From a virus (lineage: Duplodnaviria > Heunggongvirae > Uroviricota > Caudoviricetes): 53,221 nucleotides of DNA. The position numbers are program-made. Location of the stretch: the IMG/VR virus record IMGVR_UViG_646311923_000016; one strand, given 5' to 3'. This document shows, one piece after another, positions 1 through 3,000 of this stretch; position 1 is the first letter of the stretch, and each line of letters opens with the position of its first letter.

Positions 1-3000
1 TTGCCTCCCCCCCGTTGATGGGTAAAATAGCCGCAATTTTTCGTTTTCAACAAGCGCGGCGCGATGCCGCTTACTCAAGAAGAAAGAATTATGACGTTGT
101 CTCCTTATTTGCAAGAGGTGGCGAAGCGCCGCACTTTTGCCATTATTTCTCACCCCAATAATTAAGCCCAAATTAAAGCTCTTTTACTCTTTCAAAATCC
201 TTTCAGTTAATTGAGTTTTGGTTATATAAATCATTTAAATACATATATTTGTGTGACTTTTTAATTGAAGATTCTTTCATGTAACTTTAAATCGATCAGG
301 TTGCTTTCATCAAAAATCTGTACATATGCTTGTACATAATGTACAAAGCAGCAGAGGTGTTTTGCGATTTGTACAAGGTGAGTAATGGCGCTGTCTGATG
401 CGTGGTTGCGTTCAGTCGTTGGAAAGGAACGTGATAAGGTTTTGGTTAAATCCGATCGTGATGGTCTGTCTGTCAGAGTATCACCGAAAGGTCGCGTAGT
501 ATTCCAATATCGTTATCAATGGGCAGGGAAAGGTGAGCGTCTTGATATCGGAACTTACCCGGCAACTGGATTAAAAGAGGCCAGAGAAGAAGTTATCCGT
601 CTTCGTGGTGAACTCGAGTCAAACCGCAATCCACGATTGGTCAAGCAGGTAGAAAAACGCAAAGCTACTGAAGCCATGACGGTGGAGTCTGTGATCCGTG
701 CCTGGTATGCAGCATATTGTGTAAAAAATAAAAAAGGTTCTGAGCAGATACTCCGCTCATTTGAACTGCACCTGTTCTCTAAAATCGGGAGTATCCCTCA
801 CGATGTAGCTACATTGCATGATTGGTTAGAGGTCCTGGAGCCTCTTAGCACTAAGACTCCAGCAATAGCAGACCGATTGCTAATTAACGCAAAGCAGGCC
901 CATGTCTGGGCGTATAAGAGAAAGCTCATTGAAACTCGCCCGCTGTCGGATATCACGGGTAAAGATATGGATATCCGTAAAGGTCAGAAGAAACGGTTTC
1001 TGACACATGATGAAATTAAAATCCTTTATGCTGCGATCGATGGTTCTCGAATGGTTCCTAAATACCGGGCCTTCATTAAACTATTGCTGCATTTTGGTTG
1101 CCGTAGTTCAGAGCTAATTACTGCCCGGGTGGACGATTTTGATTTCATTAATAAAGTATGGACTGTACCACCAGAACGACATAAGACTGGGGAGATAACA
1201 GGCGAACCGCTAAAGCGACCCATTATTGAACCGGTTGAAGGGCTTATAAAGTACGCTATCTCTATGAACAATGGTTCCGATATGCTTTTTACTAAGGAAG
1301 GAAGCAGGGAACCCGTTGGTCGGACATCATTGCAGTCGCTGCCTTACAATTTAATGCAGTACGCATGGCGGCGTTTGGGGTATCAATTCCCTCATTGGTC
1401 TCTTCATGATTTGAGACGAACAGCACGAACAAACTTTTCTGATCTTACTGAGCCTCATATTGCAGAAATAATGCTAGGTCATAAACTGCCAGGGGTATGG
1501 CAAGTTTATGATAAGAGCGATTATCTAGAAGAACAGCGTAAAGCCTACCAGGCATGGTGGGAGAGAGTTGAATCGATTGTTACTTGTACTAACTCATGCT
1601 CCAATTGATACAGTATGCCCAGCCAGTATGTAATCAAATTTGGCAGCCTGCTTTGAGCGTAAAGCGAGAGCTGCCATTATTCTTATATTTGAACGCTATA
1701 CGATTAACTTTTTGACTGATAGATCAACTGGGTTCAGGATACCACCTGCAATATAAGCAGGTGATGGATAAATATATCATTATTGGTCAGGATATTTTGA
1801 TAGTTCAACTTCAAAAGTTGAATTTTTGTTTTTTAGAACATGATCAACACCTGTATAAAGTTGCCGTAATTTATTTACTGCATTTATATCAATGGAAGCA
1901 GGGGAGAATGCTCGGATAAGATTGTTGAAGATTTCCTTGGAGTAAGCAGATTTCTTCTTTTTATCAAGAGAGTCCATTCTTTTAATAATGATTTCTAAAA
2001 GATATGTCTTTTGATTGTTATGCATTTTTTTCTGAAGTAATAATCAGATACATCATTTCCCCCAAGGTTTTAGAGGCAAAGAACTCTGGAGATTGCTCTT
2101 TATCTTCTGTTGTCCAGTTATCATAATTGAGGTGTTCTGTTGCTCCTGCCCATATATTACAACGGCTGATTAGCTCATATATTAAATAATCAAATCGCAT
2201 GGGGAACTCTCTATTTACATCTATGCTGCTAGATTTTTCATAGCTCTCAAGTATTTCCTTTAGGAAACAACGATAATACATGAGCCACATATTGTTTTTT
2301 GAGCGTTTGAATATTGCTGTAGATACCATAACATCGAAAAACGTCAATCCAACGAAGATTGGGCATTCCCAACGCTCATCACTACTTGAATAGTAATTAT
2401 CTGGATGATTGTAAAAGCAAGAACTCCCTTTTTGTTTTTTTATGTAGCTAATGACATAATTACCCACAGGTTTCCATATTTCTAAATCTATCGCCATGCG
2501 AATATCATTTAAATAAAAATTAAGCAAGGCATTACTTTCGTCGAGTGCATACTCCCCTGTATATGAACGATTTTGGTTGTCTCGTAACTCCCTATACATA
2601 ATGCTGTTTGGGTTAGATATTAAATACGTAAAGAAATTTGTATTATACTCACAATTATATCTAAGCTGTAAGCAGGTGGCCTTCATAGCTACGTGAGGGT
2701 AAGTATCAATTAGATAATGTGAAAAAACCTTTGATTTCAGAAGATTGGATATATTTAATTGAATATCATTTTGTCTTTTGTCTTCATAAGGGAAAAACTT
2801 TGACAGAAATCTCCTGACTTTTTTGAATCGTAATTTTTTTACCTTCTCTTCATCCATTTCAATGGGAGATAATGAAGGGGCTAAGTAATTATGTACGCGA
2901 ACATACCATTTTTTATTGCTGATTATATTGAATAGCTGCTCGTGATATTTATCAAAAAGATATCCTAGTTGTTCTATTTTTTTTGCGCGCAGATATGTTT

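Follow-up and report, generated by a model that had tools for sequence, protein, structure and literature searches.

The window (the entire 53,221-nt stretch of DNA analysed here) opens with host chromosomal sequence. Its first 155 bases correspond at 100% identity to the yjjG-prfC intergenic region, prfC codons 1–21 and two bases of codon 22, and in a related genome yjjG ends directly before window base 1. Phage DNA begins at base 156 and leads through the P' arm of an attachment site into an integrase gene and a lambdoid prophage. The features of the left end are as follows.

1–90, + strand: host DNA between yjjG and prfC, including the native prfC ribosome-binding region (100% identity to unoccupied loci)
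1–28, + strand: sigma-70-like site TTGCCT-16-TAAAAT (consensus match only)
91–165, + strand: 24-codon ORF, a truncated remnant of prfC (91–155 host; 156–165 phage, C followed by AAT AAT TAA)
142–155, + strand: attL copy of the 14-bp core ATTATTTCTCACCC (three-way alignment, both copies an exact match)
156–384, + strand: phage P' arm of attL, from the core to int (contiguous with the P arm in free phages)
157–163, + strand: AATAATT, inverted copy of (A)ATTATT at 141/142–147 (read from the sequence)
319–326, 331–338 and 340–347, + strand, and 368–375, − strand: four TGTACAWA repeats, candidate arm-type integrase sites
385–1608, + strand: tyrosine integrase of 407 aa, P4/SXT type (Pfam)
3561–3755, − strand: candidate excisionase (recombination directionality factor) of 64 aa (phrog_1553 'excisionase', E = 7.7e-36)

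Bases 1–170 were matched overall by 5,424 of 5,426 complete E. coli genomes. At unoccupied prfC loci (sampled genomes; E = 1e-74) the alignments end at base 155, and in genomes that carry the element they run on past this base. An earlier sequence-only reading had placed a prophage junction inside the 5' end of prfC and had named an alignment of this segment to uninterrupted prfC loci as the way to check it; that alignment gave 100% identity up to base 155. The ORF at 91–165 reads ATG ACG TTG TCT CCT TAT TTG CAA GAG GTG GCG AAG CGC CGC ACT TTT GCC ATT ATT TCT CAC CCC AAT AAT TAA, and the 22 N-terminal residues of K-12 PrfC are all identical to it (22/22), which confirms the earlier assignment of codons 1–22 to release factor RF3 through AIISHP. 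The frame then closes as ...SHP-N-N-stop, and AAT AAT TAA stands where the G1 motif DAGKTT would be, just as had been read there. Base 156 is C in the window and G in prfC, and Pro22 is retained because the phage base is synonymous.

The ORF contains neither the G1 P-loop (DAGKTT) nor the GTPase body of a complete prfC and, since its frame is closed by the NN-stop at 165, it is a remnant and not a gene. In RefSeq, a lysogen with the identical junction has the equivalent of window 91–159 (L001, 5091–5159) annotated as a partial CDS without its C-terminus, and RefSeq relatives label it a partial pseudogene. An in-frame ATG upstream, at 64, yields a mechanical ORF of 64–165; the true prfC start is at 91. 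Chance similarity of the first 22 residues to prfC was considered and rejected; 155/155 nucleotides are identical as well as all 22 residues. The junction is real and far beyond chance.

The integrase gene starts about 230 bp to the right of the core and reads away from it. Its product combines an arm-binding domain of the DUF4102/Arm-DNA-bind_3 type (PF13356, 4.4e-16) with Phage_int_M (PF22022) and the tyrosine recombinase catalytic domain (Phage_integrase, PF00589, 8e-17), and it is 97% identical to the integrase of phage cdtI. The four TGTACAWA repeats at 319–375 are the only matches to this motif in the 53 kb and, judged from the sequence, are good candidates for arm-type Int sites, to which the N-terminal domain of Int would bind. 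The excisionase candidate also shows a weak HTH_17 match and may direct excision. Elsewhere, the window encodes a lambdoid gene set (exo/bet/gam, cIII, O/P, nin, Q, lysis, terminase, head and tail), a RIP-domain ORF at 23834–24790 (stx1A; stxA1a is annotated in relatives) and two identical IS629-like copies, which may affect prophage induction. The right edge of the window falls inside an nleG gene. Thus attL, int and the excisionase candidate are intact in the window, and attR lies beyond it.

The right end of the prophage is located ~1.1 kb past the window end. Because the window stops before attR, the hybrid prfC described below is shown only in relatives, and the attR used here is that of relatives identical to the window over its first 2 kb. 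None of the 5,426 complete E. coli genomes matched the window as a whole; the best partial matches covered the left half (95% coverage, 97.7% identity) and the right half (95% coverage, 99% identity). The first 2,000 window bases were present at 100% identity in 14 complete genomes, and 399 genomes covered at least 80% of them. For example, NZ_CP027325.1 contains the identical left junction and a Stx1a prophage, followed by nleG7, a DinI-like gene (− strand) and an intact prfC of 1587 nt. This gene starts with ATG ACA AGC CTT TTG GCC GCA GAG GTA GCG AAA AGA AGA ACC TTT GCA ATT ATT TCT CAC CCG GAT GCC GGT AAG ACT ACC, in which the first 21 codons are phage DNA and the sequence from DAGKTT onward is host DNA. 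The hybrid RF3 has 528 residues (native: 529) and differs from the K-12 protein by one residue downstream of the phage-borne start. By analogy, attR of the lysogen from which the window derives would read through a DinI-like gene (− strand), then ...CAATTATGACAAGCCTTTTGGCCGCAGAGGTAGCGAAAAGAAGAACCTTTGCAATTATTTCTCACCCGGATGCCGGTAAG..., into a 528-codon prfC.

Four further lysogens (from pig, chicken, human and wastewater) all carry an intact 1587-nt hybrid prfC, with variable cargo beside attR (an alpha/beta hydrolase; a macro-domain protein; a reverse transcriptase together with a SLATT-domain protein). The hybrid gene was therefore intact in 5/5 lysogens inspected, four of which encode the identical protein WP_000202564.1, and this attR is carried by 699 of 5,423 E. 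coli genomes (~13%). In relatives sharing the left junction or attR, an in-frame 5' end supplied by the element restores prfC. The sequence-only reading had expected the remaining prfC codons at the opposite end of the prophage, joined to a 5' end provided by the phage, and this is what the five related lysogens contain; residues 1–22 at the left end proved to be prfC, and each genome holds one prfC body, with no intact native copy elsewhere. Two loci in which the attR alignment starts later (H173 and H175) were considered as alternative hybrid 5' ends and rejected as ordinary, unoccupied prfC loci.

Comparison of the host and phage-borne versions of codons 9–22 revealed seven codons that differ, and all seven differences are synonymous. 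This pattern could in part be older than the capture by the phage, having arisen in bacterial prfC, and because the changes possibly predate capture, they do not prove that selection acted in the phage. The host and hybrid proteins differ in their first seven or eight residues, positions that are also variable among surveyed bacterial RF3 (e.g., Pseudomonas).

To define the crossover, we used a three-way alignment of attB (K-12), attL (window) and attR, in which attL is equal to attB up to base 155 and attR is equal to attB from ATTATTTCTCACCC onward. These 14 bp are the only sequence identical in attL, attR, attB and attP, and strand exchange is placed within 142–155 because no other block is common to the att sites. 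The same 14 bp are annotated as an insertion duplication in GenBank LC727876 and in GenBank records of prfC-borne Stx1a and Stx2c phages. The crossover had previously been put at 151–160, an interval that overlaps the core but reaches into phage DNA on its right side, whereas exchange is bounded by 142–155. It falls in the prfC codons for IISHP (core ATYATYTCNCAYCC), as in prfC-targeting integrase modules. Insertion duplicates these 14 bp only, since the 5' end carried by the phage is homologous to the host one but diverged from it, and not a host copy, and a search for a second copy of the core or junction in the window found none. Two short inverted motifs, (A)ATTATT and AATAATT, possibly represent core-type integrase sites flanking TCTCACCCC (148–156), in which case strand exchange would occur within the shared bases 148–155. 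After excision, attB would read ...CACCCGGATGCC.... With stx1, an int gene adjoining prfC and the 14-bp duplication, the window element is a lambdoid Stx1a-converting prophage, and window 91–165 lies within its attL.

An attP sequence was predicted by fusing the left portion of attR with the right portion of attL, and was searched in 50,697 phage records. It is present without interruption in phages cdtI and 2H10 (95.8–98% identity, 100% of the query) and in phage Ayreon (95.5% identity over 89% of the query), and the circular 33.8-kb record p13P484A-1 also aligns across the attP junction. The order in the free elements is DinI-like gene (− strand), P arm, a short ORF spanning the core, P' arm and int. 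Because this short ORF spans the core in free phages, the NN-stop found in the window is the phage's own tail of that ORF, and the contiguous attP excludes both rearrangement and misassembly as the origin of the junction. A scan of IMG/VR with the integrase alignment returned only E. coli prophage fragments that are 96–100% identical, most of them starting at int, and no new attP variants.

Based on these results, we conclude with high confidence that window 91–165 represents attL of a lambdoid Stx1a prophage that was integrated by tyrosine-recombinase site-specific recombination in prfC codons 18–22 (IISHP), and that a phage-borne 5' end rebuilds prfC at attR. In attP, the diverged prfC 5' end is carried on the P arm, the 14-bp core comes next, and the P' arm begins with two codons and a stop. 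Recombination in the core leaves the host promoter, ribosome-binding site (RBS) and codons 1–22 at attL as a 24-codon dead-end ORF; at attR it connects the phage 5' end with host codon 23 and those after it, so that the RF3 gene there is intact, with 528 codons.

A simpler possibility is that integration merely disrupts prfC. The lysogen would then lack functional RF3, a factor that E. coli can do without, and the hybrid ORF at attR would be a by-product that is not expressed. A survey by Bobay 2013 lists prfC as 'disrupted' by prophages, the O103 Stx1 phage was described as removing the authentic prfC promoter and RBS, with expression stated to be unknown (Ogura 2007, PMC2323221), and no strong promoter consensus is present upstream of the hybrid gene. 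We nevertheless regard this explanation as improbable. The hybrid ORF is intact in every lysogen inspected, despite their unrelated sources and different neighbouring cargo, and its phage-borne codons 9–22 depart from the host codons only synonymously. Moreover, the SXT/R391 system, with a 39%-identical Int, brings an in-frame prfC start of its own that is encoded differently, and a promoter is reportedly supplied by SXT. This conservation, across lysogens and SXT/R391 alike, makes the by-product explanation hard to sustain. Breakage of prfC by an illegitimate event without any att site (IS-mediated rearrangement or deletion, or misassembly) could draw on the IS activity implied by the two identical IS629-like copies, but is virtually precluded by an identical junction in hundreds of independent complete genomes, the reciprocal junction at attR with the same 14-bp core, the joined attP in free phage genomes, the integrase gene 230 bp from the junction, and breakage of prfC at the same point in other genera.

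Under site-specific integration with reconstruction of prfC, the hybrid gene would be transcribed from the P arm and would encode a functional RF3. Upstream of the hybrid prfC, no sigma-70-like site of at least 9/12 was found on the coding strand; the best sites reached 8/12, one of them overlapping the arm repeats. Likewise, consensus and relaxed promoter scans gave no convincing promoter for either hybrid prfC or int. AGA codons are rare in E. coli, and the tandem AGA-AGA at positions 12–13 of the hybrid prfC might lower its translation. At the other end of the prophage, the native prfC promoter candidate (1–28) may read into int in the lysogen, with no terminator-like site between them (none was detected in 1–700).

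These observations raise the speculative, and in our judgement unlikely, idea of a regulation swap, in which the native promoter and RBS would drive the 24-codon dead-end peptide and could extend into int, and RF3 would be produced from a weak P-arm promoter situated amid the Int arm sites, downstream of a divergent dinI promoter with LexA boxes and before the AGA-AGA pair. If true, the level of RF3 would be changed in ~13% of complete E. coli genomes, major STEC lineages among them; it could respond to Int or SOS and have effects on termination fidelity and stop-codon read-through.

ICEs (integrative conjugative elements) belonging to the SXT/R391 group also insert at the 5' end of prfC, as Hochhut and Waldor are said to have described in 1999. 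To compare the two systems, we used R997, an SXT/R391 member from the plasmid collection, whose record begins with the core ATTATTTCCCACCC; a Proteus chromosome with an R997-type integrase contains a prfC attL remnant. The phage and the ICEs target the same prfC codons, and the phage core ATTATTTCTCACCC corresponds to positions 1–14 of the 17-bp SXT/R391 core ATcATcTCtCACCCtGA, which is 3 bp (TGA) longer. The integrases share the same architecture and are 38.8% identical over 99% of their length (window vs. R997, E = 1e-75). The TGTACA arm motif is shared as well: a P-arm pair is located at −86/−74 from the core in the phage (TGTACATA) and at −87/−75 in R997 (TGTACAAA), and further copies exist on the P' arm of both. 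Both elements carry an in-frame prfC start; that of R997 has diverged independently but keeps its start codon and frame, and retains an 11-residue stretch that is also kept by the phage version.

The two systems differ in gene order and lifestyle. In the ICE, int is oriented towards attL and xis separates the two, whereas int of the phage begins 230 bp beyond the core and faces away from it, and the window element is a lambdoid phage, unlike the conjugative SXT/R391 elements. Membership of the SXT/R391 family requires an Int near-identical (about 99%) to IntSXT and a conjugative core gene set (PMC2791158); because the window Int falls far below this level (38.8%, with lambdoid phage functions in place of conjugative ones), the window element falls outside the SXT/R391 family. 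Smyshlyaev et al. 2021 (PMC8138268) had grouped the integrases of SXT and the cdt1 phage together in a cluster that targets prfC, and the pairwise identities to the cdtI and R997 integrases (97% and 38.8%) are in line with this placement. The phage and ICE modules thus share core, arm motif and P-arm geometry at only 39% Int identity, which provides concrete candidate arm sites.

To determine the breadth of the prfC-linked integrase family, an integrase alignment was searched in a one-genome-per-species set, which resulted in 80 loci. In 19 of these (43–97% Int identity), a prfC 5' fragment cut directly after ...TFAIISHP lies 196–234 nt upstream of int. Hosts include Pantoea, Serratia, Pseudomonas, Marinobacterium, Methylomonas, Methylobacter, Halomonas, Microbulbifer, Variovorax and a Burkholderiaceae MAG, and the same arrangement was found separately in Vibrio diabolicus, making 20 loci. 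Their P' arms are otherwise diverged, with the Gamma- and Betaproteobacterial ones containing a tandem TGTACAYA-type pair (12-bp spacing where measured; degenerate copies in several loci) and a third copy just before int. The repeats of the window and those of R997 follow this pair-plus-one layout too. No prfC fragment was present within 3 kb of relatives at 40–53% identity in Xenorhabdus, Photorhabdus, Morganella and Acinetobacter, nor was one found near integrase relatives at 30–33% identity. Relatives that lack the fragment presumably use other targets.

Elements that carry a surrogate gene end and leave their target intact include phage 21 and e14 at icd and those inserted at tRNA 3' ends. 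For one such integration hotspot, Bobay 2013 mentions duplication of the 3' end. What these elements replace is a 3' end, for which neither promoter nor RBS nor start codon is needed, whereas the prfC phage replaces the 5' end together with all expression signals. The dusA-specific integrative elements (Farrugia 2015; Durand 2021) differ in that their target gene is other than prfC. Most similar to the window element are the prfC-borne Stx1, Stx2c and Cdt-I lambdoid prophages, which have the same integrase (97% to cdtI), 14-bp duplication and attP. Ogura et al. 2007 (PMC2323221) reported an O103 Stx1 phage at prfC with the same junction and a short N-terminal change in RF3, and the phages of Nakamura et al. 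2023 (CC119) and phage cdtI (Asakura 2007) are likewise integrated at prfC. Nothing essential distinguishes the window copy from the known prfC Stx phages, apart from its two IS629-like insertions and the lack of an end-to-end match. The arrangement is therefore already known, with the O103 Stx1 phage of 2007, an ICE precedent of 1999 and the recognition of prfC as a Stx1a/Stx2c site; the inference drawn from the sequence at the outset was a good one, and the finding is correct but ordinary.

For genome annotation, the prfC fragment at attL should be treated as a remnant, and strains of this kind have their true prfC at attR, in the form of the 528-codon hybrid. Because the real gene is this intact hybrid, scoring prfC as 'disrupted' (e.g., Bobay 2013) is misleading. 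With ~13% of complete E. coli genomes occupied at this site, and with Stx1a, Stx2c and Cdt-I phages among its occupants, it is relevant to STEC typing.

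In 19 of 20 prfC-linked integrase loci of other species (L009, L090-L151), a stop codon supplied by the element ends the truncated prfC frame 0-11 codons from the junction. Many of these attL remnants share ...AATTCCCTCTGA or ...ACATTACCCTCTAA directly past the core; these sequences may therefore have been conserved as a core-type Int site and not through selection for a stop codon. In a Rhodoferax MAG (L169: integrase 2043-2528; prfC 4488 onward), prfC is preceded at a distance of about 2 kb by a partial match to the integrase (residues 217-378), and this locus may be a decayed element that has kept its attR side.

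The position of the putative arm-type motif TGTACAYA upstream of int is conserved in the surveyed prfC-linked loci of Gamma- and Betaproteobacteria, with degenerate copies in some of them. The motif was located as follows:
window 319-375
L002 (a relative with the hybrid prfC) 8345-8464
L172 150-420
L174 1400-1435
L009 and L090-L151

The distances from the P-arm repeat pair to the core are nearly equal in the phage (-86/-74) and in the SXT/R391 element R997 (-87/-75), even though their Int proteins share only 39% identity. A literature search of limited reach returned no published definition of TGTACAYA arm sites. Non-enteric prfC-targeting elements (L009 3880-3900; L094-L099, L103, L151) share another conserved P'-arm motif, GACAAGCTGAGNC-like, about 20-30 bp ahead of the first arm repeat; the E. 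coli phage lacks it. An accessory factor (e.g., IHF or Xis) may bind there.

Beside the P arm, a minus-strand DinI-like gene is divergent from the hybrid prfC. Some 160-200 bp ahead of the start of the hybrid prfC, two LexA-box-like palindromes (CTGT-N8-ACAG; L002 8279-8294 and 8307-8322) overlap a promoter-like TTGACA-18-AAAAAT sequence for the DinI-like gene. Phage Ayreon and strain 214-4 are without this gene and retain the P arm from about -215. The conserved Arg-Arg at codons 12-13 of the hybrid prfC is encoded by tandem AGA-AGA in the phage-borne start (L002 8516-8521), whereas the host gene uses CGC-CGC. cdtI, Ayreon, and p13P484A-1 all have the same AGA-AGA stretch in their attP. AGA is a rare codon in E. 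coli, and the window contains no tRNA genes.

The hybrid prfC reading frame was intact in all lysogens inspected. Replacement of the RF3 N-terminus has already been described (Ogura 2007, PMC2323221), and prfC has been counted among the core genes 'disrupted' by prophage integration (Bobay et al. 2013, PMC3603311). The attL remnant is apparently what automated pipelines score, with the rebuilt prfC being overlooked.

Two IS3-family (IS629-like) copies of 1,310 bp each, mutually 100% identical and each with an ALIL frameshift pseudoknot, are present in inverted orientation (window 16572-17881 and 25956-27265). The 8,074-bp segment between them contains the nin/Q region and stx1, and recombination between the copies could flip the toxin region with respect to the late operon. 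As expected for such a prophage, the Rfam matches that reached the gathering score (window 25148-25422, 20358-20559, and 9257-9315) comprised the STnc100 and AgvB sRNAs immediately downstream of stx1, C4/isrK/c4-a1b1 antisense-RNA elements upstream of antirepressor genes, and the lambda cIII thermoregulator.

Further ORFs are on the minus strand of the window:
1780-2025 (-), 81-aa ORF adjoining the 438-aa ORF, no matches
2018-3334 (-), 438-aa ORF directly after int, phrog_13820 (unknown function) as sole match
11062-12108 (-), eukaryotic-type Ser/Thr protein kinase (Pkinase, 2.2e-46) in the early-left region

The kinase ORF is annotated as a serine/threonine-protein kinase in relatives. The 438-aa ORF contains no Pfam domain and looks like a membrane protein by sequence; together with the 81-aa ORF, it forms cargo beside attL. 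Between their tail-fibre genes and the DinI/attP module, prfC-borne elements have a slot with differing cargo (window 52571-53221 (-); L004 1538-3167; L176 1-477; L178 1-970), examples being an NleG effector (window), a reverse transcriptase with a TIR-domain protein, a macro-domain protein, and a reverse transcriptase with a SLATT-domain protein. This slot appears to be a hot spot where virulence and defence morons collect.
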